This document shows positions 26,133 to 50,000 of a DNA stretch of 64,000 nt, piece after piece. This DNA comes from Naegleria gruberi (lineage: Eukaryota): NCBI GenBank assembly GCA_000004985.1, contig GG738884.1, one strand, 5' to 3'. A program made the position numbers and the translations under genes. Position 1 is the stretch's first letter. Every line of letters starts with the position of its first letter. Under the pieces are notes generated by a model. The model was not told the origin of the DNA, ran no database searches, and worked only from the letters and a program-made list of their open reading frames with translations.

Positions 26133-27551
26133 ATGACAAGAAAAACCAAAGAGGCCCACTCTACACAGAAAAAGAAGAAGATTTCCGAAAAGTCTTACTT
26201 TCAACCTTTAACACAAACTGGCACTGGTCTTCACTTGGACAGTTGGCCAAATAATTTGTGGGAAAAGTTGAATCCAGATTATACCTATGATCCATTAGAT
26301 AGATTCCGACCATTTCAATCCATGTTGTGTCTATAGGATGGTCATGAACATCCGTATAAAGAGGAAGGTGGGTTAGAGCTGATTCCTGGCTTTGCTTCAA
26401 TAGCAACCGAATATTTCAAAGCGACTGATGTTAAATTTAGAGATGGTCAATTGATGAGAGAGAAGAATCCGTGGGTTAGTCCCTATCATGTCAAATTTAC
26501 ATTGGATGAAGATAAACCATTGCTTGGACTCATTAGAAAGATAAAGAGAGTTCCAGTGGATTGGAATTTAAAAGAAAATTTAGAACCTCAAATTTCAGCA
26601 AATTCAGATGCTGTAGATCAATATTTGGAATATTTAACAAACATTGTAAAGGAGCATGATGAAATTCCATATTTTCCAATTCAAAAGGGTGATTTTGTAT
26701 TTTTTGATGTTAGAAGTCCTCATCAAAATTCAAACTCTAATCGGTTGACTCATCCAAGATGTGTATTTTATCATGCCTACTCTATGACTCATGATATCAA
26801 TAGAGATACCATCGAGGCACTCAGGGAAAAGAGAAAAACCTTTGAACATCCTGATGATTTCAGTTCAAGTTTCAAAATGGAACAACAGTCAATGGATCCT
26901 CAAAATCCAAATCATTTAATTCCACTTACCACTCTTGGAGAATGTCTTTACAATGAGAAAAGCTATGAGGAAACAATATTTTCGGAACAAATTGAGGAAA
27001 AAGATGAGAATGGTCAAGTAAGAAATTTGACACGTTTTGAGAAAATCTATGAGCAACATTCTCACATGCTTACCAAACGTCATTTGGACTTTTTCCACAG
27101 ATACGGATATGTTGTGGTAGAAAATGTAATTAATGAACAAGTTTGTAATCAATTATTGAAAGAATTGGGAGAATTTTCAGAAAAATCAAATTGTCCACTT
27201 CCTGTTGACACCATTATTAACAAGACTGGAAAGTATGAAAAGATGAATGTTTCCAAAGGAGAATTTAGAAATATTTCAAATCCTTTTGGTGCCATGATTG
27301 AGTTCTATCACTTACCTACACAACAAAAATTAAGAATGGATGAAATTCTCTATGTTTGTACAGTTAAAATGCTTTCGAATACTTGGTGTAGCAATTTAAA
27401 TATTTCACAGGAATTGCAACAGTCAGATTCGATACCAGGTCAATCCATACCTCATTGGAAATATCAATGTCCAATAGAAGCTCAATTGGATCCTAGAAAA
27501 TTGTGGCTCTACGTGGATAGAATGAACTTTAGACTTCCAGACAAAAAATAA
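26133..27551 (+). CDS. Hypothetical protein of about 470 aa, interrupted by an in-frame TAG at 26334..26336. It has weak 2OG-Fe(II)/PhyH-like motifs.
   Basis: ORF 26076..26336 (real ATG 26133) and ORF 26451..27551 share a frame and are separated only by TAG. KGDFVFFDVRSPHQNSNSNRLTHPRCVFYHAY and GYVVVENVINEQVCNQLLKEL are reminiscent of PhyH-type dioxygenases but in an unusual order. The call is low confidence. Confidence 0.35.
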
Positions 27552-27606: not shown

Positions 27607-27679
27607 GGGGATGTAGCTCACATGGTAGAGCGCTTCTTTAGCATGGAAGAGGTACGGGGATCGATACCCCGCATCTCCA
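27607..27679 (+). tRNA. tRNA-Ala (anticodon AGC).
   Basis: Cloverleaf: acceptor GGGGATG/CATCTCC with the G3:U70 alanine identity pair, D-arm GCTC-ACATGGTA-GAGC, anticodon stem CTTCT/GGAAG with loop TTAGCAT, T-arm CGGGG-ATCGATA-CCCCG, discriminator A. A downstream T-run (CTTTTTATTTT) fits a Pol III terminator. There is no intron and no encoded CCA. Confidence 0.85.
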
Positions 27680-28176: not shown

Positions 28177-29290
28177 TTATTGTTTGGCACTACATCTTGC
28201 GCCAACTACAAGATTATTACCAAGCTGAACCCAATCAATCTTGCCAATAATTTTTGCTGGTAACGGTTTTCCGTTTAGTAATTGTTCAAACTTTGCCTTA
28301 TTGGTATCTCTAAGACAGACCTTATCTTTTCCTTTGTAATCACCAGTTGTCTTCAAAACATAGAGATCGTTTTTTTGATCGTATCTGAAAATTCCACTCT
28401 TTCCAATCAGATCATTCTCATTGTTGAGTTTGGATAGGTCAATATTCTTATCTTTGGCTGCAGAAGAAGTTGTATTGCTTGATGCCTTATTGGATTTGTC
28501 ATTCTTTGATGATTTTTGGGAGGAGTTATCATCAGTTTTATCTGATCTAAAGACACTTAATAGCTTCTCCAAAAACGAAGGATCTTTTTTTGTGCAAATT
28601 TCCTCAACCTTTTCACTGTAGGCTTTATAGATGGCATGTTTTTGAGAATATTTGACCCAGATAGGATGGTTTTCTTTGGACAACTTGTCAACAATTTTCT
28701 TCACCTTTTTTGAATCAGATCCGTGTTCATTCATTAGAACAGTAATTCTTTCTAAATCCAAACCAACATACAAGTAATAGAGAACATAAGTCCTGTCCTT
28801 CTTTGCCAAAATAGTTAGAGACTTGAAGGTTTCTGGATCAATGTGCTCATTAACGCATTTGTCAAATGAAACAAGGTTGGTTTTTTTGGATTCGAGAAAA
28901 TTTGTAATTCCTTCCTTTCTCAACTTTTTGGATTCTCTCTCAAGTTTCATCTTGATCAGTTGTTTTTCTAGTTGGTATCTGTCTGCAGCTTTTTCATTCT
29001 TTCCACCATTCCTATTTCCTCCAACACTTGAACTTGGTCTGTTGACTTGGCTGCCTTCGTTGCGATAACCAGAGAATCCATTACCACCTTGTTTTTGGTA
29101 GACGAATGTTTGAGAAGATGGTGCAGATGTTGTGGAATTCACTCTTCTGCTTTCAACAACAAGATCGAGAGCATCCTTTGCTTCAGCAATTGAAATGCCG
29201 AATCTTTGACCCACTTTCAAGATGAGTACATCTTTTGTATCGCCACTGTTGCTTTGGATGAAATTGATAATTTCTTGATTAGAATTCATG
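28177..29290 (-). CDS. Hypothetical protein of about 370 aa with a possible N-terminal UBA/CUE-like helical module.
   Basis: Real ATG at 29290 (MNSNQEIINFIQ...). DTKDVLILKVGQRFGISIAEAKDALDLV resembles a UBA-like three-helix bundle. The middle is basic and Ser-rich; the C-terminus has no assignment. Confidence 0.4.
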
Positions 29291-29445
29291 ATCGATTTAC
29301 GTATTTTTTTTAAGAATAGTTGGCGAAGTGACAAGTTAAAAGAAACGTGAAAAGGACAAACAATTCCTTGTTGTAAAATCAACGGAATTGAATGCTTTAT
29401 TTTTGTACTTTTCACGTTTTAGACGGAATGGTATGACTCACTGCT

Positions 29446-30711
29446 ATGATCAATATCAAAGAAAAAATGTTAACACTTGACAATCACCTTGCCAATATCA
29501 TCAATAATTACATTTTACTTGCCAAAGTCAACAAACAACAAGCATTTGACGACTTGGTAAAGGACGAACAAACATTGAACTTCCTCGCCAACAGATTTGG
29601 ATCTGTAGAATTACAGAATGCCCTGGCCCAGCTCGATCAAGATTGTAATAATGAGTCAAATCTCTCTCTTAGCCAATCATTGAAGCATGGAAAGGAACCA
29701 GTCAATTCAACATCCACTTTTGAAAAAAACTTAAAACACTCTCTCAAATCATTTGAAGACAGCGACAGTGATGACGACGATAAAAGTGGCTGGGAAGAAA
29801 CTCAAGCTCTTTATGAAGAATTGTGGAAGAGAAAGAGGCAGACAGAAGAACAGTCCATTAAAGAATCACACCAAAAGAAGGAAAAGAAATCCAATGTTGT
29901 GCCAATTTGTCAAGATTACAGGGTTGGATTTTGCAGATATGAAAATATTGCACACATTGGCAAATGTAAATTTAGACATGAGGGAAAACGACCAACTAAT
30001 TTCGCTTTTACTCTAACGCCAGCTACACCTTCTGAAGACCAAACATGGAGAACCAAATTCGTTCAAGCTTTTGAAGGGGGAAATGTTACTGTCACTTCAA
30101 TTCAAAAGATTGAAAATAAGACTTTGGAGACAATGTACAAATTGAAAAGTGAAGAAATAAGAAACAGAAGAAAGATTGAAGAAATCTCAAACTTTGAACC
30201 TTACCTCTACCATGGAACTACAGAACAAGCTTTAAATTCTATCATGACATATGGAATTAACATACCATCTGATTACAAAGCAGATCCTACGTGTCCAGTG
30301 AGTGGAAAGTTGCCAATCTCCATTTGTAAAAATGATTGTAAACTTTGCACACAAGCAAGACATTGCTGGGGAAATTGTCACATGTATGGATTGGGTGCTT
30401 ATTTTGCTGATAAGAGTGTAAAGAGTGATCGTTACGTATATGATACAAATGGAGCCAAAGATCATAAAACGGGAAGAAAGATGCTTGTTTGTAAACTATT
30501 TCCAGGAAAGGTTAAAACAATTGATACACATCTAAACAAACAAGATCAACACCATGATGACATTCTCCCTCCTTCTGGTTATGACAGTGTATTTGCTAAA
30601 GGATTGGGATCAAATGCAAAGGTTGGATTTAGTGTAATCAATTCAGAATTCATTATTTTTCATCCATATCAATGTCTTCCACTCTATCTCATTACTTATA
30701 ATAAAGCTTAA
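29446..30711 (+). CDS. Poly(ADP-ribose) polymerase with an N-terminal CCCH-type zinc finger and a PARP1-like catalytic core retaining the H-Y-E triad. A Cys-rich insertion sits in the donor-site region.
   Basis: CQDYRVGFCRYENIAHIGKCKFRHE (CCCH); YLYHGTTEQALNSIM (His); HMYGLGAYFADKSVKSDRY (compare PARP1 GKGIYFADMVSKSANY); VINSEFIIFHPYQ (compare PARP1 YNEYIVY, Glu retained). The insertion is CPVSGKLPISICKNDCKLCTQARHCWGNC. Confidence 0.7.
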   Translation: MINIKEKMLTLDNHLANIINNYILLAKVNKQQAFDDLVKDEQTLNFLANRFGSVELQNALAQLDQDCNNESNLSLSQSLKHGKEPVNSTSTFEKNLKHSLKSFEDSDSDDDDKSGWEETQALYEELWKRKRQTEEQSIKESHQKKEKKSNVVPICQDYRVGFCRYENIAHIGKCKFRHEGKRPTNFAFTLTPATPSEDQTWRTKFVQAFEGGNVTVTSIQKIENKTLETMYKLKSEEIRNRRKIEEISNFEPYLYHGTTEQALNSIMTYGINIPSDYKADPTCPVSGKLPISICKNDCKLCTQARHCWGNCHMYGLGAYFADKSVKSDRYVYDTNGAKDHKTGRKMLVCKLFPGKVKTIDTHLNKQDQHHDDILPPSGYDSVFAKGLGSNAKVGFSVINSEFIIFHPYQCLPLYLITYNKA

Positions 30712-30712
30712 T

Positions 30713-31613
30713 TTATTTCAATTCTTCCCAGTTGCCAATCGATAATCTAATCATTTTACTTCCTTTTGGCATTCCAAGTTTAATACTGGCATCAACAATT
30801 CCAGTTTTTTGGACAATTCCAGAAATTCTATTTGGCAGAACAGATCCATTTCTTTCCGATTTGATAACATTGAAATTTTCCAAATCAAGACAAGCTCTTC
30901 CTCCAACCTGATTATCATATTGACCAATACAGTCAAGTAGATAGCCATATCTCTTGTACAAGGTGAACCAACTCTCTTCCAACTAAATCTTCAATCGAAT
31001 TTAAAGAGCTCAAATCTATACTTGGGAAGGAAAAGATTTTCTTTGGATTGTGATTGCTAGTACTGCTACTCTTGTTGGATCCTTCTCCTCTATTGGATGG
31101 TTTCTTCATAGTAATAGCATTGGGTCTAGTGCTCTCTGATAAAGGAGCCTTCGAAGATTTGTTGGCAGACATTGATCCAAATGAGCCTAAACCACCTCCG
31201 TTGGAAAACAAAGCTGCCTTCTCGATATGAGAATCCAAGCAATCTTTCAACAAACATTGTTCCTTCCATTGTTTGTAAATGTCATTGTCTTCAATGAGTG
31301 AAATGTAATGTAACAAATTCTCTCTAATGACATATTTCTTTTTCAATGAGTGAGAGAAGTAGTCATTAATCATGGTGAAAGAATAGCTTGCTTTCATCAA
31401 CATTAGAATTTCAAGAAGTATAATGTTGAAAGAAGGCCCGGAAGGGTTTTCGTCAAGAACGGTTTCTAATTCGTTAATTGTTAATTGTTCGTATGAATTT
31501 TTGAAACCATTCGAAAGTACACTATTAGCAATGTTGGAAACAATCACGCAGTGATCATCTCTTTTGGTGTTGTTGAATTCCCGTTTCGTGAGATCAAAGA
31601 ACAAGCTGGACAT
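30713..31613 (-). CDS. Hypothetical protein embedded in the PARP/ARH cluster. Two exons, with the junction near 30965-31015.
   Basis: ORF 30933..31613 (MSSLFFDLTKREF...) and ORF 30713..30982 overlap in different frames. A 46-nt GTATAG...TTGGAAG intron is the most economical join. No domain was recognised. Confidence 0.35.
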
Positions 31614-31660
31614 TTTTTTTAATAAAAGAATTATTTCGAAAGTGACTCACTCATCACGTT

Positions 31661-32656
31661 TTATTGATTGGTATTCATTTCTACGTCAAACATTTCGTCT
31701 AAAGCAACTTTATCAATTTGATTTTTAAACAAGGTTTCAATGTCTTTGTTACCTTTGAAAAATTGATAAGCACCCTCAAGCATTTGTAAAGTTGATTCGT
31801 CGTGAACTTTCTTCCAACTCATTAAGTAATTTCTCAAGTTTTCTCTGCTAAAGTTATTAATAATGAATGTAATATCGTAAACTGGAAGAGGTCCTGTGCT
31901 TACACTGTTTTTGGCACTTTGTGAGTTTTCAGTTTTGGCTTGATTCGATTCGGATATTTCATTATTTGAATTTTCCAGTTTAGAATCAGTTGATCGTGTT
32001 TCTATTTCTTCACTGGCCAAAGATGGAGTAATTTCTTTGAGTTTTGTTTCGGGAGGAAGGTAATTGGGGTCATTAAGTATTAAACTCATGGTAAGACTCA
32101 AGGACATGTTGAAAACTTCATCTTGAGTGTCTTGATCCTCTGGTTTTACATTTTCATCAATTACAGTTGTGTTAGTAACATCATTTGGTGGCCTATAAAC
32201 AGTTTTTCCATCTCCAGAAGCTGTCAAATTATTTTCTTCACTTTTGACATTTGATGACTCGGTATTCCCTTCCTTTTTTTCAAAAGAACTTTCATCAAAT
32301 CCCTGATCCTTTGATGAATTATAACTTGGACACTGGAAAGTATCCATCTTTCGTGGAAGTAAATTCAAAAAATGATTCATAATGATATGAGAAGAATTCT
32401 CCTTTTCTTGATTGATGAATGCATAAAGATGTGAGAGAGAATCAGGTAAGAAGAATTCACTTGTATTTGAATTGATCTCCCTTGAAGTACTTTCCAAGTT
32501 GGAATTTTGAGAAAATGAAGAAAATTCTTGTTCTGATGTTGCTGATCTTTGAGGTGGTAAACGAGAAAGAAACAGAGAAATAATTCCATCTTCACGTTCT
32601 CTCATCACGTTTCTGGTGAAATCTCGAAGTAATAACACACATTCTGATTCTTTCAT
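31661..32656 (-). CDS. Hypothetical acidic Ser-rich protein of about 330 aa.
   Basis: ATG at 32656 (MKESECVLLLRDF) is preferred over the in-frame ATG at 32713, which would lie 4 nt from the ARH stop codon. The middle is low-complexity. The C-terminus is YQFFKGNKDIETLFKNQIDKVALDEMF. Confidence 0.35.
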   Translation of the reverse strand: MKESECVLLLRDFTRNVMREREDGIISLFLSRLPPQRSATSEQEFSSFSQNSNLESTSREINSNTSEFFLPDSLSHLYAFINQEKENSSHIIMNHFLNLLPRKMDTFQCPSYNSSKDQGFDESSFEKKEGNTESSNVKSEENNLTASGDGKTVYRPPNDVTNTTVIDENVKPEDQDTQDEVFNMSLSLTMSLILNDPNYLPPETKLKEITPSLASEEIETRSTDSKLENSNNEISESNQAKTENSQSAKNSVSTGPLPVYDITFIINNFSRENLRNYLMSWKKVHDESTLQMLEGAYQFFKGNKDIETLFKNQIDKVALDEMFDVEMNTNQ

Positions 32657-32717
32657 TTTTTTTAATGTTCTTTGTGTCACTTTACAAAGTAATATGAATG
32701 TGACGTCTATCATTTTA

Positions 32718-34310
32718 TTAATACTTCAACTGTCTGCCAAGCTTGAAGAATTGCACATTGTTTGATGATGAGAATATTTGGTTATAGATGTGATTGAGAT
32801 CTGATTCATTGAAGAACATCATTTGTTGACTAAACTTTGGTATGATATTTCTAATAAAATCCTCATCACTGACATTTCTCAACATACTTCTCTCCTTCTT
32901 CAATTGATCAACAATATTTTGGAGTACATTGACTGGTCTAGAGCACATATAATGAGGTGTTCTTTGTTCATTCTTAACAGCAAGCAACTCTTTTGTAATT
33001 TTCAACTCTTGACGATACAAAAATCCAGCAATTTTCTTTGCATCTGGAACAGCACTCCCATTTGCCCATTCAATGAACAACTTGAAGAAATCGTACAAAG
33101 TTTGATAACCAACCACTTGCTGAGTAATATAGAATGGAATGCTAATACCTTGTGCTCCTTTATAGGCACCAACCATTGCACCCACCATTGAGGCTACTGT
33201 ATCAGTATCTCCACCTGAAAAGTTAAAGTTTGAAAAATTAAATAATTGACTCAACTTACCAATATCAATAGCCTTCTTTAGTATTGTTAAAAGTTCTTCA
33301 TCCTTGTGAATAATAGAATGGAATAGAGCAGTGGTACAACTGGCAACTGCAAATCCATCACTTGGTCCATTGAGCTTATTGTCTTTGGTTACTAATGGAG
33401 CATATTCAACAACTTTAGTCTTGACAATTTTCATGTATTCATCTGGAGAGTTGAATTTTCTCTTTTGAATTTCTTTCAAGATGCTTTCAATAATAAATGA
33501 ATATTGACCCAATTCACCATCTTTAAATCCATTTCTTGAAAGATACTTTTCGAATAAAGAAGTTTCTGATAAAACTGCACTGATAATATCCAAAGAAGAA
33601 AGCTTCAAAAGAGAACCGCTCATCCATTGGTACATTAGCCATGCAATAGAATAGGCAGGAATGATTCCCAAAACTGAACGGTGAGTCAACTTGGCATTTG
33701 CAATCACTTCTTCTCTCAATCTACCAATTCTTTCATGAGGAGGATAACGAAAAACAGAAATGACACATGGCCAAACTCTCATGGCAACACCATTACCAGC
33801 TGTATCTTTTGAAATATCGTTGGTGCAATTTTCGTTTAGTTGAGCAACGCTTCCTCTAAAGTTTCTTCCAGTTCCTCTAAAACCACCAAATTGATAATCA
33901 GCTAGAGGAAATCCAGCCCAATCAAACCACTTTTGAGAAGAAAGAAACTTCCAAAGACTTTTGATGTAAACATCATTCAAATTTCCATCACTATGATCAA
34001 AAATTGATAGTAGATGAAATTTTCAAAGAACAACTTACACCAAATATGATTCAATAATAGAAATAGCCATTTGGGTATCATCAGTATAAATTAAACCTAA
34101 ATGACACAAGTGATCATTAATAGTATTATTAGATTTAGACCAAATTCGTTGAATTTCTTCTGGTTTCTTATTTTCGAAAGGTGATCCAATGGCATCTCCG
34201 ATCGTTGCACCAACAGCACAACTAACCATCGCCTTCTGCACATTATTTCTACTGAATGAAAACAATGGTATCTCCTGTTTGGTGACTTGTTTTTGAAATG
34301 AAATTGACAT
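32718..34310 (-). CDS. ADP-ribosylglycohydrolase (ARH family, PF03747-like). Three exons: 34039..34310, 33260..33990, 32718..33214.
   Basis: The N-terminal motif is AMVSCAVGATIGDAIGSPFE (GDAxGxPxE) with TDDTQM. The C-terminal motif IDIG|GDTDTVASMVGAMVGAYKG (GGDTDT) is restored by removing an in-frame 45-nt GTAAGT...TTTTCAG intron that the long ORF reads through. The first intron is 48 nt (GTAAGT...CATAG). The real ATG is at 34310. Confidence 0.7.
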
Positions 34311-34398
34311 TTTTTTTAAACTTCTTTTCACGTTTTCCAATTCACAATTGCAAAAATAAGTTTCTTGACGAGTATTCAGCGGTCACGTTTGTGTGTTG

Positions 34399-35379
34399 AT
34401 GAGAATTAACCCATCAATTAAAAATTCTAATACTCTAATCTTCATGTCATACTTTGCAAAAACAGATTTGTCACATCTCTTATCTTCCTCTCTTCTGTCT
34501 TCTGGAGGACCAACCGAAAGGAAAAGAATTCCAGAGAAGCGTAGGCACTCCTGCGATTATGAGCATGCTGGATTTTGCAAAACTGATTGTCCTTCAAAAC
34601 ATTCTTCAAAAGGAATAATCTGCAGAAATTCATTGATTGGAGGATGTTCAGATAATAAGTGTCGTTACCAACATCCACATCCAAGGAGAGTTGAGAAAAC
34701 TCTCCAAAGCATCTATGTTAACAAGGGTCTTGATTCAGATGATGATCAGAAAAAGTTCCTCAAGAGGCACGTTGTTAAATGTCCAATTCATATGGCAAAG
34801 GATGTTTGCTCTGATCCTTTGTGCAATGATTCAAAGTGTAACAAGCAACATTTTGTTGATACAAGTGTTACTGGAATACAAGCTTTTGACTTGCAAAAAA
34901 CATTGAACGGGAATACATCAAAACTTGTGGATTGTCCTCCTTCCAGTTTCGAATATGAATTGCTCATCAGTACATGGAAGGAAAAGAGAGGTCAGAGTCA
35001 AATTGTCAAAGTTGAGAAGGTGATCAATCCTTCATTGGAAGCTGTCATTGAAAGGAGAAAGGCAGAGTTATTGCAACAATGGCAAGAAATTGATTTCCTT
35101 TTCCATGGAACCTCAGAAGCAACCATTCAATTGATCCTTGCCAATGGTTTTGATGCTACAAAGAACACAAGGGCTGCTTGGGGGCCTGGAATTTACTTTG
35201 CATTCGATCCAAACACTGCAATTGGGTATTCCAATGAGAAGGGAAGTAAAAAGCTGATTGTGTGCAAGGCCTTCCTTGCAAAAGATGCTTCAGATCACAA
35301 ATTTGTTGCTCAAAATACTTGGTTTGTTGTTCAGAATACCAGTGGTCTGCAACCAATGTATGTTCTCACTTTGGCCTAA
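34399..35379 (+). CDS. CCCH zinc-finger PARP-like mono-ADP-ribosyltransferase (H-Y-T; catalytic Glu replaced). Transcribed divergently from the ARH gene.
   Basis: Two to three CCCH fingers (CDYEHAGFCKTDCPSKH; CRNSLIGGCSDNKCRYQH; CPIHMAKDVCSDPLCNDSKCNKQH). Then FLFHGTSEATIQLILANGF (His), GPGIYFAFDPNTAIGYS (Tyr) and QNTWFVVQN (Glu replaced by Thr). Confidence 0.65.
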   Translation: MRINPSIKNSNTLIFMSYFAKTDLSHLLSSSLLSSGGPTERKRIPEKRRHSCDYEHAGFCKTDCPSKHSSKGIICRNSLIGGCSDNKCRYQHPHPRRVEKTLQSIYVNKGLDSDDDQKKFLKRHVVKCPIHMAKDVCSDPLCNDSKCNKQHFVDTSVTGIQAFDLQKTLNGNTSKLVDCPPSSFEYELLISTWKEKRGQSQIVKVEKVINPSLEAVIERRKAELLQQWQEIDFLFHGTSEATIQLILANGFDATKNTRAAWGPGIYFAFDPNTAIGYSNEKGSKKLIVCKAFLAKDASDHKFVAQNTWFVVQNTSGLQPMYVLTLA

Positions 35380-35449
35380 TCATCACGTTTGAGCGCTAAT
35401 AAATGTCATTCCAATCTTTCATTTGACTTTGACAGGACCATAAAAAAAA

Positions 35450-36361
35450 ATGGAACAAGAAATTCTTGGTGCTCTTGCTCAATTTCGTAACAAGAATCAC
35501 ACGTTTGATGAAGGTTATGTGGCAGCAATACAGTTGTTGACTCATTCCTACACTTTCACCCAATTGAATACCATTAAAAAAGATATTCAACAACGCGAGT
35601 TGAGAAACACAAAAGATTTCTTTAAAGAGTTGGCTGGATCTTACTCCAAAAATTCTGAAGGAATGACCAAGGAAGAATATTTGCAAGAATCTATTAGAAA
35701 TCTTTCTGGATTTTCTTTTGCTGATATGATCAACCTGAGCAAGGAGGAATTCTATAAAGCACTAGAAAGTAGAAAAGGCCCAAAACGTGTGGTAAGCGCT
35801 TCTACCACTCCATTGGATTCTGATAGTAGTGACGATGAAAGTCCAAAACCATCTTCCTCATCAGGCAAGAGATCATATTCATATGATCATCTATTCTCTA
35901 GACACGATTTGAGCTCCAAGTTAGATATCAGACCCAAATGCAAATATGGAAATACTTGTAATCAGTTATATGATGAAAAGCATATGAAGGAATTCTCACA
36001 TCCATTCCTACCTCCATGTTGTTTCAAAAACTCTTGCTCTGAATATGGTGATGAAGCTCACAAGTTTTCACATCCCTGTAGATATGGCTCTCAATGTAGA
36101 GAATTGAAAGATCCACATCACACCCAATACTATTCTCATGCAGAGAGAAAGGTTTGTGAACATGACAAGGAATGTCTTTGTATTCATGATAGAGATCACA
36201 TGCTTAGAGTTAAGCACACTGGTGCATTGGATTTCAGGCATGAGTGTAAGTATGGGTTATTATGCAAAGATGACTCAAGAGAACACCATTTGAAATATGC
36301 CCATCCCTCAACTTTAGGTATTCCAACAAACTTTTACGGTACGTTGAGAAATCTTATTTGA
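35450..36361 (+). CDS. PBZ (PAR-binding C2H2-type zinc finger) protein with 3 canonical and 2 degenerate PBZ motifs.
   Basis: CKYGNTCNQLYDEKHMKEFSHP, CRYGSQCRELKDPHHTQYYSHA and CKYGLLCKDDSREHHLKYAHP fit C-x5-C-x6/7-H-x5-H with the conserved Y/F-G, as in APLF and CHFR PBZ. The N-terminal half is helical and acidic with an SDSSDDESP stretch. Confidence 0.65.
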   Translation: MEQEILGALAQFRNKNHTFDEGYVAAIQLLTHSYTFTQLNTIKKDIQQRELRNTKDFFKELAGSYSKNSEGMTKEEYLQESIRNLSGFSFADMINLSKEEFYKALESRKGPKRVVSASTTPLDSDSSDDESPKPSSSSGKRSYSYDHLFSRHDLSSKLDIRPKCKYGNTCNQLYDEKHMKEFSHPFLPPCCFKNSCSEYGDEAHKFSHPCRYGSQCRELKDPHHTQYYSHAERKVCEHDKECLCIHDRDHMLRVKHTGALDFRHECKYGLLCKDDSREHHLKYAHPSTLGIPTNFYGTLRNLI

Positions 36362-36480
36362 AATTAATCCTTTGTTAATTAGATATCAATCAAGATATAG
36401 ACTTTGATGCCAATGTTGTAGCTCTTTCCAGTTCTATTAGCAATTATTCAATCAATACTGGAGACCTAGCATTGATAAAC

Positions 36481-37989
36481 ATGTTATCAAAAATTGACTC
36501 TGGAGATCGTAGTGTAGATTTCATATATGAGTATGTTAATAGAATTAGCCCACAACACAGATGTAAAGAACCAATATTAAAACTCATTCTATCGCATGGC
36601 ACTTTACTATCAAGAGTTTTCCAAAAGAAAATGACAAGCTCACCAAAGGAAGCATGCATGGAGCTTGTTTTTACAAGTCCTTTAATTACACAATCCATCA
36701 TGCATGAAAGACTCACATTATCCAATGATGTTAAAAAGTGGATTGTGGAATTGTTGAACTTTCAGATAGACCAACGTGACAATAAGAATCCTAAATCTGT
36801 GACTTGCAAATTAAAATTAAGCAAAAAATGCCAGCAGGAGGTAGAAGGTGTGATTAAGGACATTGTTCGTGCCGTCTTTTCACACACAGTTACTGGTATT
36901 GGTTGCCCATTGGATTTAGCTGTGAAAACAGACCAACAGGTTTTTTCAATTGTTGGTATTAATAAGGCAGATTATTATGGTGATATTCTTTTCATACTTA
37001 ATAGGAAAATCATGTTCCATCCAGATTTTAACATGAGTTTGGAAGCTGCCACTCATTATGTGGATCGCCCTGGAGAAGCTTCAAAGACAAACAAGTGGAG
37101 AATCCCTCCTGGAAATAATTCAAACAGTAATTATGAGAATGCCAAATTGCACCCAGCTGCCAAAAACTTTCACAAATTATTAGCTAAGGATATGGCAGTA
37201 TATCATTTCAAATTATTTGGTTCTTTGCCTAAATCTGTTGATGATTTGGTAAATACCTCACTCCATGAAGATCCACACAATGTATACGAAGGTCATTTAC
37301 CTCCAATAGTCCCAGTATCTTATATTTCCCACGTTATTATGCCAAAAAAGGTATTTGATAACCTGTCTGATGCAGAAAAAAAAGTACTCAAAGTTGTCAT
37401 TTTGAAAAACAAAGCAGATAGATTAATATTCAAGGACTCTGGGCATCATCACCTTATCAAATCCCAACAATTATGGGATTGCAAGAAGCACAAATTGACT
37501 GAAATGTATTTAGGAAGATTATTGTCCTTCTCTATCATGTATCAATATGGAAAGTTCAGTATGTTGCCTCAATTAGCTCTTCATTCATCAACAAAAACAG
37601 TTATTGAACTGTGCATCAGAGGAAAGGATATTGGTATATGTCTTTCACCAACCAAGAAGGCAGATAGATCCAATTCCCTATTCATCATCATCAACAAGGT
37701 TTTCTTTTGGAAATCCAACAAGACTCCATCAACAATAATTACTGACGGCAAGAAGGAGTTGAAAAAGGTCAAGGAATTCATCCTGGGTGATATCTTTATG
37801 GAAAGATATATTTACTATACCATCACCTATAAACCTGGTAAAAAGTTGAGAGTGGAGGTGAGTGAGAAGAATAGTAATGATATTGAGAGGAAATCGTGCG
37901 AGGTTAACATCTCCCATAGTAATTTAAAGAACATACTATTCTCTAATTGGAGTTCTCTAGTAGAAGTTAAATATATTTCAATTAAATAA
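36481..37989 (+). CDS. Hypothetical protein of 502 aa, adjacent to the PBZ gene.
   Basis: Long clean ORF, real ATG at 36481. No recognisable motifs. Mixed alpha/beta composition with an HHH tract. Confidence 0.4.
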   Translation: MLSKIDSGDRSVDFIYEYVNRISPQHRCKEPILKLILSHGTLLSRVFQKKMTSSPKEACMELVFTSPLITQSIMHERLTLSNDVKKWIVELLNFQIDQRDNKNPKSVTCKLKLSKKCQQEVEGVIKDIVRAVFSHTVTGIGCPLDLAVKTDQQVFSIVGINKADYYGDILFILNRKIMFHPDFNMSLEAATHYVDRPGEASKTNKWRIPPGNNSNSNYENAKLHPAAKNFHKLLAKDMAVYHFKLFGSLPKSVDDLVNTSLHEDPHNVYEGHLPPIVPVSYISHVIMPKKVFDNLSDAEKKVLKVVILKNKADRLIFKDSGHHHLIKSQQLWDCKKHKLTEMYLGRLLSFSIMYQYGKFSMLPQLALHSSTKTVIELCIRGKDIGICLSPTKKADRSNSLFIIINKVFFWKSNKTPSTIITDGKKELKKVKEFILGDIFMERYIYYTITYKPGKKLRVEVSEKNSNDIERKSCEVNISHSNLKNILFSNWSSLVEVKYISIK

Positions 37990-38308
37990 TATTAGTCTCT
38001 ACCATTTGATACATGTATTTTCTTCGAGATGTGATTTTAATATTTTTATTTAAATTTAACGTTAAAATTAGCGGGTAAAAATTCTTTTGCTGTGTTGGCA
38101 AGTAATTCCCTTCAATTATTTGTTCTTCAATAATCATGACAATTAAGTTTGAGAGTGTATTCCGCTCTAAAAAACAATCAAGAAGACATTATTCCTCTCC
38201 ATCACACATTACCTCCAAAACTTTAAATAACTCACCGTTACAATTTCAATTAAAATTATTAAAAAAAATTTTAAAAGTTTTGTGTGTTTTGTGGTAAAGA
38301 GAAAGAAC

Positions 38309-40405
38309 ATGAATATTATTTCCTCTAAAAAGGCATCACAAAGTAAAACAACCAACTCCACTCCCAATAAGAATGCTCAAAATTCCTCTCTACAATCAAC
38401 TCCTAACAAATCTTCATCATTAATTAAATCTAATTCTAACCAACAATGTTCATTTCAAACACCAACTAAAAGTAGTACTACTCTCCGAACACCATCATCA
38501 ATAGCATCATCATCCTCTCTAAAATCGTCCATTGTTTCCTCCTCGTCATCATCAACTGATGTTTATCAGGTAGCAAAGAATGCAGCCCTCTCATCCAATG
38601 AGAGAAATACAGAGCAATGTCTACGAGCCATCAAGTATTTTGCAGAGGGAAAGTTTGAATTGGCTCTGGGTCAGATTAGTTTGCAAACAACCAAGTCATT
38701 TCTCTCCAAATTGGTTTCGTATAAATGTTTCTATCACATGAGTGAAATTGAGAAGGCACTGCTTGTTTTGAAAAATCTGTACAATGATACAACCACTCTG
38801 ACTGAGAGAGGTGAGGAGGATGTGATTGGTAGTGTTCAGATCAGTATCATGTTTGCCCAAATTGTTCTCTTCAAACTCATTCCAAAACGATTGACATTCA
38901 AGTGTTTATTGGCTGAGGAGAGTGAAATTCTTGAGAGTGGGGAATCTATTAGTTCTGATTTGGATATAATTAAGGAATATTTGAGAAAAATTGTAAATAT
39001 GTTGGATAAAGCAAGGGAAGATTTGAAGAAATTAGAGAATGAATGGATTAATTTTGATAGAGAGGAGGCACCTTTCGATTTGACATCAATTATCAATCAA
39101 TTGAAGTGGTTTATTATGTTTTACAAGGGTGTGGCCCATTTTAGAACCTACGAGTATGTATACACTAAGAATGATTATGAGGAGTGGAAGAAAATTTTGG
39201 AAACGCTTTCGAAAAAGGGCCAATTTCTGCATGTAGACTTTTTTTACATGCGCTCACACTTATCATTCATGGAGGGTGAATTAGAGAAGGCACTATTTTA
39301 TTTAAATAAGGCAGAAAGATCAGAGGAGCATTGTAAAAAAACAATTAAGGAACATGTGGGTGGTGTCAATGCAACAGATGCCATGTGGATACTTGATGAC
39401 AGTGCTCTTTCTTTTGACGTATTTGACATGATTCAGGATTTAAAATCCAAAATTACATTTTCACAATATCTGGAAAAGAGAATGGTCTTAAGAGAGGTGT
39501 CAGAAAAGAAGGAATTGGAACGTCTCATTAGAGAAATCAGATCAGTTAGTATTAAGAGAAGACAACACAATGCTTCACTCGCTGAGAGAACTAAACAATT
39601 TGATGGATTCTTGGGTACATTAGCCCAGACCATGTTTAAGAACTTTGATTGTTCTATCATTGAGAAATTCAGAATTTATGGTCAGTATAGATATGTGGTT
39701 CATTTAGCCAAGAGTTTACTCAATTCTGACAAGCCATTATCACATTCTATGAAGATCGCCTGCGTACATTATCTAGTTGAAGCTCTGTACTATCTGAAGA
39801 GGTTTAGTGAGTGCGTTTCAACCTATTCTATACATTCGGATTTATTCAAAAATATTGATTCGAGTCAGGAACATAGATTACTCAAAGTCAATTACTTTGT
39901 TGTAGATAGTACCATTACAATTAACTTGGAGGGTGGCTCTCTAACCTGGACCATTCAGGAATCAGAAGCACTCATCAAGCAAAATTTGAAAATTACCAAA
40001 GAAGTTCGACAATTATATCTAGCTCTCAGATTTTACAAATTTCTTGGACGTGAATCAGCAGCCACATTATTGAAACATCTATTCACCTCCATTCAGAAGG
40101 ATTCTTCGATTACTTATTCAGAATTTTTCACTGTAGTCGAACAGTATAGTTCCAGAAATTTCACCATCAAGATTGGCACGAGCAAATCCCTAATAGCTAC
40201 ACCAAACAAGACCAACGAAGCTACTCCTCAGAAGAGTGCAACTCCATCAGCTGTTGATGACTTGGTTACCTATTCAAATTTTGAAGACTTTTCCCCACTT
40301 CGTTTACAAAGCAAAATGAAGAAACAGAATCAAGCACTTGAGGAATTGAAGAGAAAACGAGAAGCTCAACAATCATCTTCAACAAAAAAGACAAAAACAG
40401 AATAA
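38309..40405 (+). CDS. Hypothetical helical-repeat protein of about 700 aa with an N-terminal Ser/Thr-rich tract.
   Basis: Real ATG at 38309. A 54-codon upstream ORF (38136..38297) precedes it. No confident domain call was made. Confidence 0.4.
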   Translation: MNIISSKKASQSKTTNSTPNKNAQNSSLQSTPNKSSSLIKSNSNQQCSFQTPTKSSTTLRTPSSIASSSSLKSSIVSSSSSSTDVYQVAKNAALSSNERNTEQCLRAIKYFAEGKFELALGQISLQTTKSFLSKLVSYKCFYHMSEIEKALLVLKNLYNDTTTLTERGEEDVIGSVQISIMFAQIVLFKLIPKRLTFKCLLAEESEILESGESISSDLDIIKEYLRKIVNMLDKAREDLKKLENEWINFDREEAPFDLTSIINQLKWFIMFYKGVAHFRTYEYVYTKNDYEEWKKILETLSKKGQFLHVDFFYMRSHLSFMEGELEKALFYLNKAERSEEHCKKTIKEHVGGVNATDAMWILDDSALSFDVFDMIQDLKSKITFSQYLEKRMVLREVSEKKELERLIREIRSVSIKRRQHNASLAERTKQFDGFLGTLAQTMFKNFDCSIIEKFRIYGQYRYVVHLAKSLLNSDKPLSHSMKIACVHYLVEALYYLKRFSECVSTYSIHSDLFKNIDSSQEHRLLKVNYFVVDSTITINLEGGSLTWTIQESEALIKQNLKITKEVRQLYLALRFYKFLGRESAATLLKHLFTSIQKDSSITYSEFFTVVEQYSSRNFTIKIGTSKSLIATPNKTNEATPQKSATPSAVDDLVTYSNFEDFSPLRLQSKMKKQNQALEELKRKREAQQSSSTKKTKTE

Positions 40406-40571: not shown

Positions 40572-42560
40572 ATGGAACCATTCGATGATATTGTAACACC
40601 AACTAAAATGGAGGCACCGATCGACGATTTTACATCTGATCAAACACCACAAACACCGGGAAGTGCTATTGATTTTGGAGCCTTGAGTGGATTGGAAGTT
40701 GATGTGGCTGAGATTGAAAATCCAGATGCTGTTCAAGAAAAATTAGCCTCTCTCTACAATGTAGAGGAGTGCTCTGATATTGTATTTATAGTTAGGAATA
40801 GAAGATTTTTTGCTATCAAGGCTCTTGTGTGTGGTTGGAGTCCAGTTTTCAAGTCAATGCTATGTGGAGAGTTCATTGAATCAAGTTTAAGAGAAGTTCC
40901 TTTGGATGATGTTGAAGAAACTAGTATGGAAATGTTTTTGAAGGTTATTTATTCTGGAAAGACTGGTCCATATCCAATTCATAATTTTGTTGATCTATAT
41001 GCATTTGCTAATAGATTTGAAGTTCCAGAAATTGAAAAACTCTGTCTCACTGCATTACAAGAACAAAATTTGGCCAAACACTTATTCCCATTGATTGATG
41101 CTTGTGAAAAGTATATTGATCTCGAAGAAATTGAAAAGATTAGAACCGAAGTTGTAGCCAAAATTTGTTGTGAATTTGATGAAGTTTGTTCTAGACCTGA
41201 CTTTGTGAATATGCGTATTGATTACTTGTTGAGATTCTTAAAATCTGGAATTATTGTCATTCCAGAAGATGTTTTATTCAATTCTTTAATGCGTTGGATT
41301 GTACACGATAAGGAGCAAAGAATTCAATACTTGGATGAATTATTGTCCTTTATTAGATTCCCAATGATGGAATCTGTTGCATTGACAGAAATAGAAAACC
41401 ATCCTCTTCTCCAAGATAAGATGGATGAAATGAAATCCATTATTTACGAAGCAATGAAATTCCAATTGAACAAGGATGCCATTCCAGAAGAAAGAAGAGT
41501 TCATGAAAACTTTAAAGAAAGAGAAGGCCCACCAGAGGAAGATGGACATTCCTACAAGTACAAGAAGGTCTTTACTTTGACATCTCTTGGTTGTACAGGA
41601 AGCGTCAAACCAACAAGTATTGGAACTCATTATGACAAGCATCTTTCCAAAGTAATTACTCTCAAGAATGGTATTCAAGAATGGAAAGTTCATGCTAGTG
41701 GAAAATATAGAATAACTGCAGTTGGTGCATCTGGAGGAATCAACCCACATACCACCAATACTAAGGGTGGTAAGGGAGCCAAAGTGAGTGGAATTTTCAA
41801 ACTCAAGAGAGGTCAACTTATCCAAGTATTAGTTGGTCAAAAAGGAGGTAAGTTGAACTATTTAATAATAATCGGTCTAAACAATTGTTAAGAGGATGCC
41901 ACAGGTAGTACTGGCGGTGGAGCTGCAGGAGGTAAGTTGTTCATTATTTGAATGAGGATGTTAATTAACAATTTTCAGGTGGTGGAGGTACATTTGTAGT
42001 GGATGGAGAATTGCAACAACCATTGATAATTGGAGCTGGAGGTAGCGGGGCAAATTGGTATTCATTTACCATCGATGGACCTGGTGGTCAATTATACGAT
42101 CCTTCAATTGAATCAACCAAGTCGGTTGAAGCTTATGCAGAAAGAGGAGGTGGCGGCGGTGGATTTTATATTAAGGGTGCTAATGGTTCATCTTGCACTG
42201 GTGGTGCCAGCTTTTTAGAAGGTGGGTCTGGAGGTACTAACTCAACTAGTACTTATGGAGCTAAAGGTAAGTAACACAAGAAATTTGATTGAATTGATTT
42301 ATTCTCTTAAAGGTGGATTTGGTGGAGGTGGTGGTTCTGAGCACGAAGGTGGTGGTAAGTAATTTTTTTATTATCCTATTGAATTATTAACTTTTCAAGG
42401 TGGTGGAGGTTATGTTGGAGGCAAGTCACTCAAATCTAATGAATATAACACTTCTCGTCCTGATTATGGTGCCTATTCTTTCAATTCTGGTTTAAAGCCA
42501 GAAGGTGAACCAGCTTGTCACGTTGGTGATGGTTATGTTGAATTTGCCAGAGTTTTCTAA
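40572..42560 (+). CDS. BTB/POZ-BACK protein with a C-terminal ALK/LTK-type glycine-rich domain; paralogue 2. Five exons: 40572..41847, 41893..41931, 41979..42266, 42313..42354, 42400..42560.
   Basis: BTB: DIVFIVRNRRFFAIKALVCGWSPVFKSMLCGEF. GRD: ITAVGASGGINPHTTNTKGGKGAKVSGIFKLKRGQLIQVLVGQKG | EDATGSTGGGAAG | GGGTFVVDGELQQPLIIGAGGSGANWY...GGGGGGFYIKGANGSSCTGGASFLEGGSGG | GGFGGGGGSEHEGG | GGGGYVGG...GDGYVEFARVF. All four introns are 45-47 nt, GTAAGT donors, phase 1 within GG(T/A) Gly codons. Confidence 0.7.
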
Positions 42561-47090: not shown

Positions 47091-50000
47091 TTACTCTACA
47101 ACATCTTGCCACATTTCCTCAATTTCATAAATGGCTTCAAGAATTTCTGAAAAGTCAGGTCTGATATTTTCATCAGTTGCCCAACATGTCTTCATCAATT
47201 CTGTGTACTTATCAACAAGTGGGATCAATAGATTGGAACTGGTCAATTCTACTCTATTCTTTTGCTTATTACAGAATAAATACCATTCACATTTTAGGGT
47301 ATCTTCGTCTTGCTCGAATTCGGACGAGTCGTTTTGAATTTGGAGTGCATTGTTTCTTACTGAGCTTATTTCCCATGGAATGACTGGTCTTCTGCCCTGA
47401 ATAACTTCACTACCAATAGAGAAGATACTCATCATATCAGAGCCTATAAATGTAGTATGACCTGATGTGTCAGAGCTTGTCAAATCAGAAATTTGTGAAC
47501 CACTATTAGATTCAGTACTAATTCCAATACTAGACCTTTCCTTCTTGGTGAGGGGAGATTTTGGAAGTTCTGTATATGGTTGTACCATGAAGAATAATTC
47601 ATACATGAGGATGGCAAAACTGAAAACATCACATTTGACTGTATATCTTCTAGATTGCTTGAGGATTTCTGGACTTGTGTATTGGATAGTACCATAACAA
47701 ACACCAGTCATTGTGAGTGAAGACAATGGCTTTGACACACCAAAGTCACAAACCTTACAATTGCCAGCTTCATCTATGAGAACATTTTGAGGTTTCTATT
47801 ACAAAAAATTAATTAAGAGTATTCAATTTGAATACTTACCAAATCTCTGTGAATGATAGGTGGTTTAGTGTTATGTAAATAAATCAAAGCTCTACAAATA
47901 TCCTTCAATATTTCAAGTTTTCTTCCAAATGTAATAATTTCATTTCTAGCCTTCCTCTTCTTAGGATAGATGATCTTGTCCAAACTTCCACCTTTTACAA
48001 ACTCAGTTACGATATACTTGTTATCCTCGTCCACACTGACACCAATAAGTAAGACAACATTAGGGTGTCTCAATCCTGTTAAAATATTAGCTTCATGTTC
48101 AAAGTTTTCATCATCATCACAACCAAATTGGTTAGATTTGATTCTCTTGACAGCAACTTCAGTACCTTTCCAAGAAGCTCTGAAAATAACACCTCCAGCA
48201 CCTTCTGAAACTCTCTCCTTGAATTCCAAATCTTCAATTGGAATCAAATGGGCAGATGTATTTGTAGAGTCCATTGAAGAATAGAAACTTGATTTAGTGT
48301 TGTGCTCGAGAAGTTTAGATAACATTTCATCTTCTGCCTTCTTCTTTCTCTTGAGAGTTTGTGATTGTCTTCTAAACATGAAAGCAAATATACCCAATGG
48401 TATAGCAACCACAAGAATTATCAAAATACCAGCTACAATTAGAATTGGAACAATAACACAAGCAGCATATGAAGTGTTTCCATTCGTGAATGTTGGTAAA
48501 CCCAGTGGACAAGAAGTACATTTGACAGCACCTTTCAAATCAGAGTAAGTAGAAAATGGACAAATTTCACATTGTAAATCTCCATTAAGGAAGAAACCCT
48601 CCTTACAGTATACGCAAATAGATAAATTCTTAGAACCAGCACTTTCTGTAGTCATACCTGTTGGACAAGAATAACAAACAGGAGAACCAGTAGAGTTTGA
48701 ATAAGTTCCAATTGGGCACAATTTACAATCTCCTTCTGATTCGGATCCACTATTTGGTTGGAATGTTCCAGCAACACAAGCTGTACATTCCTTTTGACCC
48801 ATAGTATTAGCATAAGTACCAGGAAGGCAAGGAACACAACTGGTAGAGTTGGATGAACCCTCATTTGGATTAAAGGTTCCAAGTGTGCATTTTGAGCAAA
48901 TAGAGGCACCCTCCTTTTCAGAGTATGATCCAGCTGAGCAAGGTTTACAATCTGATGCTTGATAACTGTTCATATTAGAGTTTGCTGTACCTGCTGCACA
49001 CTTGGTACAATGAGGAGCTCCAGGATTTGCGCTAAAAGTACCAGTCGAGCATGGCAAACATGACATTGAACTATTTTGACCAAATAGTGGTTGATAGGTA
49101 CCTTTTTCACAGAGTGTACATTGATATTGTTGCATTAGATCTGCGTATTGACCTGTAGGGCAAGGAAGACATTTCTTTAAACCAGTCACAGGTGCAAATG
49201 TACCAATTGGACAAGCTGTACAATTTAAAACTTGTCCAGTAGTATTTGAAAAAGATCCTTTTGGACATGAGTCGCACAATCTCTGTCCAATTGTTTTTCC
49301 AAAAGTACCAGGTTCACATGGAATACATGAAGAAGGATAAATAGAACCCATTACAGGATTGTGGGTTGAAATAGGACATGGAATACATGAAGAAGCTCCT
49401 ACATAAGGATTGTATTGTCCATAAGGACAAGGTGTACAGGTTTCATTTGAGAAGGCAGAAAGCTCATCACTTGCTGTACCTGCAGGACAATGATAACATT
49501 GTTCATCCTTAAACATAATTGTATAAATTGTTGGTAAACTTGGAAGGGTTCTATTGTAGAATGAAACAACATAGGCCTTATTTGATTCGCTGTATGCCGA
49601 ATAAATAGCTCCATAAACTGTATCTTTGGATTTTTCAATAATAGTTTCCTTATACCATCTTTCTCTATTTCTAACACAATACTTGGAAGCGAAAAATCTA
49701 GATCTGACTTCATTGGGATTACCAACATTACTACCACCTGGTCGAATAACTCCAGATACGTAGGTGAAACCACTTGAATCTACATCAAATGTTGTATTGT
49801 AAACGTTTTGGAAAGTAAGCATTGATTGCAAGAAACCATTTGAATCAGTTTTAGCAAGGAAAAAATTTCTATCAAAAGAGCTGGTTACATTTTGCCCTTG
49901 GAATGATACATAACTACCAAACTCGCCAGAAAAGAGAATATTTCTATTTGGATCAAACTTGAGAAGACTGCTGAACTCTGAAGTGAAGAATTGGTCAGAA

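Follow-up and report, generated by a model that had tools for sequence, protein, structure and literature searches.

Seven adjacent genes at positions 28177-37989 (about 9.8 kb) of a 64,000-nucleotide stretch of Naegleria gruberi DNA (assembly GCA_000004985.1, contig GG738884.1; the whole stretch is called the window below) probably form a co-regulated ADP-ribosylation gene neighbourhood. The cluster encodes three proteins of the ADP-ribosyltransferase (ART) superfamily, one ARH-family hydrolase and three small lineage-specific proteins. The first-pass annotation of this DNA had described four genes within 7 kb that write, erase and read ADP-ribose; that clustering is real, and the unit comprises seven genes in our analysis. 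Clusters of functionally linked, non-homologous genes are rare in eukaryotes outside metabolism. No mention of the gene IDs of the cluster was found in the literature, and the cluster, its promoter motif and the domain that we name ART-X (the transferase-fold domain of the PBZ-ART gene) appear to be undescribed. The genes, with their positions in the window and their sizes in amino acids (aa), are as follows.

28177-29289, minus strand: '412', 370 aa from the first ATG, lineage-specific
29446-30711, plus strand: PARP-A, 421 aa, one finger and a PARP catalytic domain (Pfam PARP 45.8 bits) with the triad H-Y-E
30713-31613, minus strand: '226', lineage-specific, with an N. fowleri homologue that lies head-to-head with PARP-A
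31661-32713, minus strand: '350', lineage-specific, acidic and Ser/Asn-rich
32718-34310, minus strand: ARH-family ADP-ribosylglycohydrolase, 499 aa when spliced, exons 34310-34039, 33990-33260 and 33214-32718
34399-35379, plus strand: PARP-B, 326 aa, three CCCH-type fingers and a compact catalytic domain (Pfam PARP 41.6 bits) with H-Y-T
35450-36338, plus strand: PBZ-ART gene, exon 1, an N-terminal helical region followed by five PBZ fingers (about 35939-36304)
36339-36382, plus strand: PBZ-ART gene, intron of 44 nt in phase 1 (GTACGT...TTAG), linking the PBZ open reading frame (ORF) to the '505' ORF
36383-37989, plus strand: PBZ-ART gene, exon 2, the linker INQDIDFDAN, the ART-fold core ART-X (about 36502-37419) and a beta-rich C-terminal region

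Domain searches with Pfam supported the PARP, ARH and PBZ assignments that the first-pass annotation had made, and its coordinates hold. The window is AT-rich (~35% GC) and very gene-dense, and the cluster has the same GC content as the rest of it. No further PARP-like or ART-X-like ORF was found in the remaining 54 kb of the window. Adjacent non-homologous genes for PARP, ARH and PBZ-ART-X proteins stand together with three genes of unknown kind, and they share a common cis-element.

A promoter motif is confined to the cluster

The 8-nt motif TCACGTTT was first noticed by reading the intergenic spacers. In the 64 kb it occurs seven times, always inside the cluster (29343-35390), compared to 1.4 copies expected for the whole window, and none of 100 shuffles reached seven. 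Each of the seven genes has one or two copies 0-60 nt from its probable start; six copies are located less than 100 nt upstream of probable gene starts, and the seventh abuts one. In an unbiased enumeration of 8-mers, TCACGTTT ranked first: the upstream regions of the seven genes, 568 nt together, hold six of its seven copies (binomial p 3.4e-12, 19,015 k-mers). The main sites are as follows.

29343-29419: divergent '412'/PARP-A promoter region, with TCACGTTT at 29343-29350 (minus) and 29412-29419 (plus)
31654-31661, plus strand: TCACGTTT, 41 nt upstream of the '226' start codon
34328-34390, plus strand: divergent ARH/PARP-B spacer (88 bp), with TCACGTTT at 34328-34335 and 34383-34390
35383-35390, plus strand: TCACGTTT, 60 nt upstream of the PBZ-ART start codon

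A repeat finder, which is independent of the motif search, identified the two copies in the '412'/PARP-A spacer as an 18-nt inverted repeat (94% complementary) and found a 40-nt similarity, at 70% identity, between the ARH/PARP-B spacer and the PARP-A promoter (direct repeat D1). PARP-A and PARP-B are distant paralogues with 21% identity. Since the paralogous proteins are only ~21% identical, an exact 8-12-mer would not survive between their promoters without selection, which favours a shared transcription-factor site. The start codons of ARH (34310) and PARP-B (34399) lie on opposite strands with 88 bp between them, close to the ~90 bp first described, so that transferase and hydrolase genes are directly adjacent, and it is plausible that one promoter serves both. 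On the evidence of the motif, the seven genes would be co-expressed and act in one pathway. If they are indeed co-regulated, this is a signalling- or conflict-type cluster marked by a testable promoter motif, and the motif offers a direct way to learn when, and for what reason, ADP-ribosylation is switched on in an early-branching eukaryote.

Six of the genes remain together in N. fowleri

One genome, that of N. fowleri, was compared. Its contig L001 (13.5 kb) carries homologues of six window genes ('226', PARP-A, '412', PARP-B, PBZ plus ART-X), in an order and orientation that differ from those in N. gruberi. For the genes that flank them (DUF4419, guanylate cyclase), the 64-kb window contains no homologue. 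The adjacency is therefore kept beyond background synteny in the one species compared, with ARH elsewhere in that genome, and the cluster predates the split between N. gruberi and N. fowleri. The '412' orthologue (L001 6211-7428) has 33% identity, and a seventh gene, between the '412' homologue and PARP-B, weakly resembles '350'. The N. fowleri cluster has six copies of TCACGTT compared to 1.5 expected, and 1 of 200 shuffles reached six.

The synteny thus held for six genes and failed for ARH, which in N. fowleri is outside the cluster and beside a different PARP. It is in tandem with a gene of 1105 aa that encodes a coiled coil, a protein kinase and a PARP domain with H-Y-E. Since ARH is next to this kinase-PARP gene in N. 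fowleri and next to PARP-B in N. gruberi, ARH neighbours a PARP in both species, though not the same one. The kinase-PARP gene, whose architecture is unusual, is at 12052-15424 (plus strand) of locus L008 (VFQX01000028.1), about 100 nt downstream of the ARH orthologue. Conservation of the cluster in N. fowleri, the brain-eating amoeba, gives it relevance to a pathogen.

The PBZ reader is fused to a third ADP-ribosyltransferase-fold domain

A gene for a reader with three to five PBZ fingers had been placed at 35450-36361. The five fingers were confirmed, but this ORF makes up just the first exon of a longer gene that also encodes a third ART-fold domain, so that the product is more than a reader. 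A splice donor (G|GTACGT) at 36339 joins the PBZ ORF in frame to the '505' ORF (36472-37989), in which conservation extends 5' of the first start codon to a region with no ATG. The N. fowleri gene has an intron (GTAAGT...CAG) at the same position and in the same phase, the annotated N. fowleri protein CAG4716485.1 has exactly the junction of the 36339-36382 model, and the spliced proteins of the two species are 47% identical end to end. In distant homologues, too, the PBZ array leads straight into a conserved linker (LNxxIDFxxN). By these comparisons, the PBZ and '505' ORFs are one gene, with a product of 831 aa that consists of a helical N-terminus, five PBZ fingers, the linker and a C-terminal part of 535 aa.

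The bare ORF 35450-36361 scores 22.3 bits against Pfam PBZ (PF10283), compared to a cut-off of 22.7, and the longer public model scores 24.5. Four fingers were found by a motif scan (C-x2-5-C-x6-8-H-x5-H) and a fifth, degenerate one by eye; the N. fowleri protein has five. They are predicted to bind poly-ADP-ribose (PAR). The public model XP_002674388.1 (NAEGRDRAFT_50979, 1387 aa) covers the PBZ gene, and the Joint Genome Institute (JGI) model likewise joins the PBZ and '505' ORFs, via another phase-1 donor (GTAAGT, 36246) inside PBZ finger 5. Because the donors at 36246 and 36339 are both phase 1 and share one acceptor, alternative splicing to forms with four or five PBZ fingers is possible. 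The public 1387-aa model bypasses the conserved C-terminus and continues into ORF 38282-40405; we rejected this extension, as N. fowleri shares both the C-terminus and the stop codon. These results correct public gene models of N. gruberi.

ART-X is a eukaryotic domain family with a DarT/OspC-like fold

A word-indexed homologue search with the '505' ORF returned the N. fowleri orthologue alone, and a full profile search was needed to recover the family. This search gave 240 relatives of ART-X, 145 of them at E values up to 1e-10. They share a conserved core of ~300 residues with the motifs P.HRC..iFESIL.HG..MSR, GIGY..D...GT..VFSIlGPH.G.YYG, eIM.HPD.NF...AAT and DSH.vfE.HLP...PL.YI. Among the long relatives (n = 28), a microbial-type PARG domain is present in 22 and PBZ fingers in at least nine, and single members have WWE, ART, PARP or RING domains; the usual order is PARG, PBZ array, LNxxIDFxxN linker and ART-X. 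Named members are from Pharyngomonas (Heterolobosea), bdelloid rotifers (Adineta, Rotaria, Didymodactylos), Diphylleia and Kipferlia, all annotated as uncharacterised, and all of the named relatives that were looked up are eukaryotic. Pattern scans of IMG/VR and GTDB for ART-X were negative.

At five loci found by a scan of metagenomes, probably from rotifers, a single ORF encodes both a PBZ array and ART-X, and no PARP or ARH gene is adjacent to it. In JGI metagenome contigs L004-L007, which are AT-rich and probably rotifer, an uninterrupted ORF with a PBZ array and ART-X is followed by a second PBZ array.

The AlphaFold2 model of ART-X built from 22 sequences has a mean predicted local distance difference test (pLDDT) score of 89.8 and a predicted template-modelling score of 0.87; the full 534-aa C-terminal part modelled with two sequences only reached a pLDDT of 32. 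A Foldseek search of the PDB with the ART-X model placed DarT at the top, and a search of BFVD placed DarT-like proteins of baculoviruses, iridoviruses and giant viruses at the top; viral proteins of this kind have been described (PMC9503650). The model has the split beta-sheet characteristic of ADP-ribosyltransferases. As judged from this model, ART-X has an ADP-ribosyltransferase fold, DarT/OspC-like.

Invariant or nearly invariant polar residues in 22 divergent members are H19, R20, S37, D138, T143, Y159, H173, T184, H259, E263 and H265, and the conserved positions include H19, Y159-G160 and E263-x-H265. The OspC/CopC enzymes have an H-F-E triad and an essential E-x-H motif (OspC3 E326/H328; PMC9239266), and we infer from the residue pattern that H19, Y159-G160 and E263-x-H265 of ART-X parallel the H-F-E and E-x-H of OspC3/CopC. 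When ART-X and PARP profiles were aligned with hhalign, only vHRC..sIL.hG fell over HGT..I..Gf, which is the expected register and is statistically weak. The domain that follows the PBZ repeats of PARG-PBZ proteins was found nowhere described in the literature; an earlier mention in the 2015 ADP-ribosyltransferase review of Aravind is possible. ART-X is thus an unnamed domain tied to readers and erasers of PAR across several eukaryotic supergroups, and it is most like bacterial toxins that modify DNA or arginine. If it is active, it would bring a new writer chemistry to eukaryotic ADP-ribose biology.

PARP-A and PARP-B belong to small Discoba-restricted families

Both PARPs exceed the Pfam cut-off for the PARP catalytic domain (PF00644, 26.7 bits), with PARP-B scored on ORF 34393-35379. 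PARP-A has the motifs LYHGT, GAYFA and NSEFIIF, which give H-Y-E in alignments to PARP10, tankyrase and its own family; the assignment of the triad follows from the alignment of its Glu to Ile987 of PARP10, and H-Y-E is kept in all four complete family members. The motifs of PARP-B (LFHGT, GIYFA and NTWFVV) give H-Y-T in alignments to solved PARPs and to its family, in which N. gruberi has T, N. fowleri N and Ploeotia G as the third residue. The triad Glu of PARPs is required for polymer elongation, and PARP-B would be at most of the mono-transferase type. The nearest solved relatives are PARP14, PARP10, ZAP and PARP15 for PARP-B, and PARP10 and tankyrase for PARP-A.

The genes had been called CCCH-finger PARPs of the PARP12/ZAP-like kind with an intact H-Y-E core (PARP-A) and a mono-ART H-Y-T core (PARP-B). 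Catalytic domains and triads were as described. The finger of PARP-A (C-x7-C-x10-C-x3-H) is atypical and has no Pfam match, and the CCCH matches of PARP-B are below the Pfam thresholds (zf-C3H1, 19.0 compared to 20.9; ZAP-like CCCH, 17.9 compared to 27). Neither PARP has a Pfam match to the WWE domain, and no match to the WGR or PARP regulatory (helical) domains of PARP1-3 was found at E values up to 0.1. Both families are small and restricted to Discoba, with PARP-A having only seven homologues in 5.8 billion proteins. These results do not support membership in the PARP12/ZAP group, and the resemblance appears to be one of architecture only.

In the euglenid Ploeotia vitrea (P0005, EukProt transcriptome), a protein of 688 aa has a PARP-B-like catalytic domain N-terminal to a PARP-A-like zinc finger and catalytic domain. 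This protein is one of the seven homologues of PARP-A, and its PARP-B-like domain is 35% identical to PARP-B (E 2e-23). The presence of both domains in one protein suggests that the PARP-B/PARP-A pairing may be older than the split between Heterolobosea and Euglenozoa.

PARP-A also has a Cys-rich insert (30292-30384, plus strand; C..S[IL]C...C..C....H.W..CH) between the His and Tyr motifs, at the position of the donor loop. The insert is conserved across the PARP-A family, its position differs from that of the tankyrase zinc motif, and it is probably a zinc site.

The ARH hydrolase is spliced and has both metal-site motifs

The ARH-family hydrolase at 32718-34310 on the minus strand was confirmed, with two introns added to the gene. 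Its Pfam ADP_ribosyl_GH (PF03747) matches score 60.1 bits in 32718-33980 and 39.6 bits in the upstream exon ORF 34035-34340 (cut-off 26.2), and the metal-site motifs YTDDTQM and GGDTDT are both present. The introns, 33991-34038 (48 nt) and 33215-33259 (45 nt), are canonical and short. The boundaries of the first are supported by the residues that they retain, which are conserved in N. fowleri, and the second is supported by the absence of its 15 residues from both N. fowleri and the JGI model. The protein is 100% identical to XP_002674466.1 of N. gruberi NEG-M except for gaps between the gene models. XP_002674466.1 begins at an internal Met and omits the 11-residue stretch DGNLNDVYIKS, which is conserved in N. 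fowleri (33991-34038 and 34230-34310), and the first intron of this public model was probably drawn too long.

The best relative with a solved structure is archaeal MJ1187 (6.9e-15), followed by ARH3 (~6e-8 to 2e-7) and DraG (5e-5). Since the best is archaeal, orthology to ARH3 is not established, and the 'ARH3' in the UniRef name of the protein is an automatic label. The subfamily has a conserved C-terminal extension of ~100 aa with the motif RTPHY (32718-33020 of the window, minus strand), and an amoebozoan relative (Pellita catalonica, P0015) adds a RanBP2-type zinc finger.

The lineage-specific proteins

No Pfam domain was found in '412', and its C-terminal ~90 aa are similar to the C-terminus of '226'. 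In '226', the reading frame changes at about 30913-30985 (minus strand), either through a 51-nt intron (GTACAA...CAG) or through a frameshift (pseudogene or assembly error); downstream of the change, the other frame encodes a domain like the '412' C-terminus. Because TCACGTTT (32605-32612) and TCACGTTC (32592-32599) stand directly before Met37, '350' probably starts at Met37 (32605). Its orthologue may be the N. fowleri gene at L001 7767-8492 (plus strand), which has two matches to the ubiquitin-interacting-motif consensus, EEDQIEIAKARSLQD and EEEFQRALAISEQE. These matches hint at a link between the cluster and ubiquitin.

Alternative explanations

Several observations weigh against a co-regulated unit with an active third transferase. 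The comparison covers a single other genome, in which the ARH orthologue (FDP41_002170) is not on L001 but on another contig, at a locus without motif enrichment. The orientation of TCACGTTT relative to the genes varies, and several of the TCACGTT copies in N. fowleri are variants or are within coding sequence. The match between '350' and the N. fowleri gene is weak (E 0.34) and C-terminal, and the Ploeotia fusion, known from assembled transcripts, may be chimeric. PARP-B is without the catalytic Glu, at a triad position that is not conserved. As for ART-X, the equivalence of its H, Y and E to catalytic residues comes from the conserved motifs and not from a superposition, the hhalign probability for its alignment to PARP is just 1.8%, and it is without a Pfam match (DarT included; E up to 0.1), a PADLOC match (E up to 1) or a sequence match to a solved structure.

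In a compact genome with many PARP, PARG and ARH paralogues, some would be neighbours by accident. Intergenic distances are short throughout the window, and the PAR machinery of N. gruberi is expanded, with for example up to seven bacterial-type PARGs (PMC4245714). Such chance adjacency is nonetheless very improbable given the absence of PARP and ART-X ORFs from the other 54 kb, a motif exclusive to the cluster (p 3e-12) and six genes that remain together in N. fowleri; by a rough estimate that assumes generous family sizes, two PARPs, one ARH and one PBZ gene among seven consecutive genes would be expected at less than 1e-4 genome-wide. Local duplication is another source of order without joint function: if a divergent gene pair and its promoter were tandemly duplicated, the motif and the synteny would be inherited history. 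The distant paralogy of the PARPs, the C-terminal domain shared by '412' and '226' and the 40 nt common to two promoters would all fit. We consider this unlikely, since a neutral promoter as old as PARPs with 21% identity would have lost an exact 8-12-mer, and the motif also precedes ARH, '350' and PBZ-ART, which are not paralogues of the other genes. In addition, the genes are still together in N. fowleri despite different flanks and a reshuffled order, and independent fusions join the same domain types. That the cluster is a defence or toxin-antitoxin island recently acquired from bacteria or giant viruses can be put down as hardly credible. By structure, ART-X comes closest to the bacterial toxins DarT and OspC and to proteins of baculoviruses, iridoviruses and giant viruses that are uncharacterised, and the best solved ARH relative is archaeal; but the GC content is that of the rest of the window, spliceosomal introns are at conserved positions, the named ART-X relatives looked up are all eukaryotic, the IMG/VR and GTDB scans were empty and the cluster is older than the split of the two Naegleria species. 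CCCH fingers, moreover, are typically eukaryotic. PBZ fingers are known from eukaryotes only (PMC4245714).

A separate question is whether ART-X is an enzyme. It could be a degenerate fold that binds ADP-ribose, NAD+ or PAR, or a scaffold, like ZAP/PARP13 or TASOR, and the gene would then encode a pure reader. Many of the ART folds in eukaryotes are inactive (table in PMC7955679), ART-X has no sequence match to a characterised ART, and it always comes linked to PBZ (reader) and PARG (eraser) modules. The polar residues that are near-invariant in 22 divergent members form a pattern typical of an active site, H19, Y159 and E263-x-H265 fall where ART enzymes hold catalytic motifs, and the E-x-H parallels the essential E326/H328 of OspC3; a non-enzymatic ART-X thus seems rather doubtful to us. 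As for the cluster itself, the idea that it is an unusual, co-regulated module gains from the motif, the persistence in N. fowleri, the euglenid fusion and the fusions of eraser, reader and ART-X, which together support an arrangement that is non-random and probably co-regulated.

Comparison with known systems

The cluster is a variant of known ADP-ribosylation systems. By analogy, it would be most like the writer-eraser pairs DarT-DarG and DraT-DraG combined with PAR-dependent recruitment, while by sequence it does not qualify as a member of those families. DarT-DarG consists of a bacterial DNA ADP-ribosyltransferase toxin and a macrodomain antitoxin. ART-X is outside the DarT family by sequence and is eukaryotic, intron-containing and fused to PBZ fingers, and the hydrolase here is an ARH and not a macrodomain protein. 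Compared to the bacterial effectors OspC3/CopC (arginine ADP-riboxanases) and SopF, ART-X has ~10-12% identity and is without their ankyrin or calmodulin-binding parts. The DraT/DraG and PARP1-HPF1/ARH3 systems likewise pair an ARH-fold hydrolase with an ADP-ribosyltransferase, whereas the pairing here is genomic (divergent over 88 bp in N. gruberi, tandem in N. fowleri).

Bacterial-type PARG proteins with PBZ repeats have been noted for Adineta vaga, with their C-terminal domain unmentioned (Perina et al. 2014, PMC4245714). These rotifer and protist PARG-PBZ proteins have the PBZ array and the LNxxIDFxxN linker in common with the Naegleria protein, and their C-terminal region, which is covered by no Pfam family, is homologous to ART-X; the protein of the Naegleria cluster differs in being without a PARG domain. 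Animal CCCH PARPs (PARP12, PARP13/ZAP and PARP7) are alike in having CCCH-type fingers N-terminal to the PARP catalytic domain. The cluster PARPs differ from them in being without WWE, in their sub-threshold CCCH matches and in belonging to small, Discoba-restricted families, and PARP-A in particular has H-Y-E, a single atypical finger and the Cys-rich donor-loop insert. The catalytic domain of PARP-B is closest by sequence to the PARP14, PARP10, ZAP and PARP15 group and is without the catalytic Glu. Citarelli et al. (2010, PMC2964712) described two orphan PARPs in N. gruberi (proteins 72525 and 80603) that retain H-Y-E and lie outside all PARP clades. By their account, from which gene clustering is absent, these proteins are short, end in the catalytic domain and carry no recognised domain N-terminal to it. 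PARP-A fits this description and was matched to it by description, not by protein ID.

Proposed mechanism

A single transcription factor could read the ACGT-core motif and turn the seven genes on together, the trigger probably being a stress, DNA-damage or infection signal. PARP-A would then build oligo- or poly-ADP-ribose on targets reached via its zinc finger, and the PBZ fingers would dock the third transferase on this polymer, where ART-X would spend NAD+ to modify a nearby protein or nucleic acid. PARP-B would attach mono-ADP-ribose. The ARH hydrolase would reverse or limit the marks, and it may stand in for the bacterial-type PARG that is fused to PBZ and ART-X in other eukaryotes.

More tentatively, and as a possibility that we put well below even chances, the cluster might be a eukaryotic counterpart of bacterial ADP-ribosylation defence systems. 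It would form a single regulon under transcription-factor control, turned on by genotoxic stress or by an infection, giant viruses of Naegleria being one example. In it, PARP-made PAR would recruit, via PBZ, a DarT/OspC-like ART-X that ADP-ribosylates nucleic acid or modifies protein in an unusual way, with ARH as the built-in antidote. If this is true, the ART-X proteins of Naegleria, Pharyngomonas, bdelloid rotifers, Diphylleia and Kipferlia would make up a new family of eukaryotic enzymes, with a chemistry new to eukaryotes. A PADLOC search gave no defence-family match for any cluster protein.

Other features of the window

The window also holds ordinary eukaryotic genes, which encode an Atg3-like protein, a receptor kinase, Vps36 and a gamma-tubulin complex protein, among others. 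Cellular genes such as the last two led us to reject the idea that the window comes from a giant virus or a nucleomorph. An Rfam scan gave one match, a tRNA gene (53.6 bits; 27607-27679, plus strand) outside the cluster, just beyond its left edge. A gene for a Gig2-like/PhyH-type dioxygenase lies at 26451-27551 (plus strand), ~0.6 kb from the same edge, with the tRNA and a 120-aa ORF between it and the cluster. It was excluded from the cluster because it is without TCACGTTT and has no counterpart in the N. fowleri cluster.

Further away, two paralogous genes at 2367-3374 (minus strand) and 40572-41891 (plus strand) encode BTB/BACK domains and an ALK/LTK-type glycine-rich domain. The receptor kinase gene (47091-53134, minus strand) is large and encodes nine ephrin-receptor-like repeats and EGF domains, and its kinase domain is divided between two ORFs by a gap of ~74 nt, which is probably an intron.

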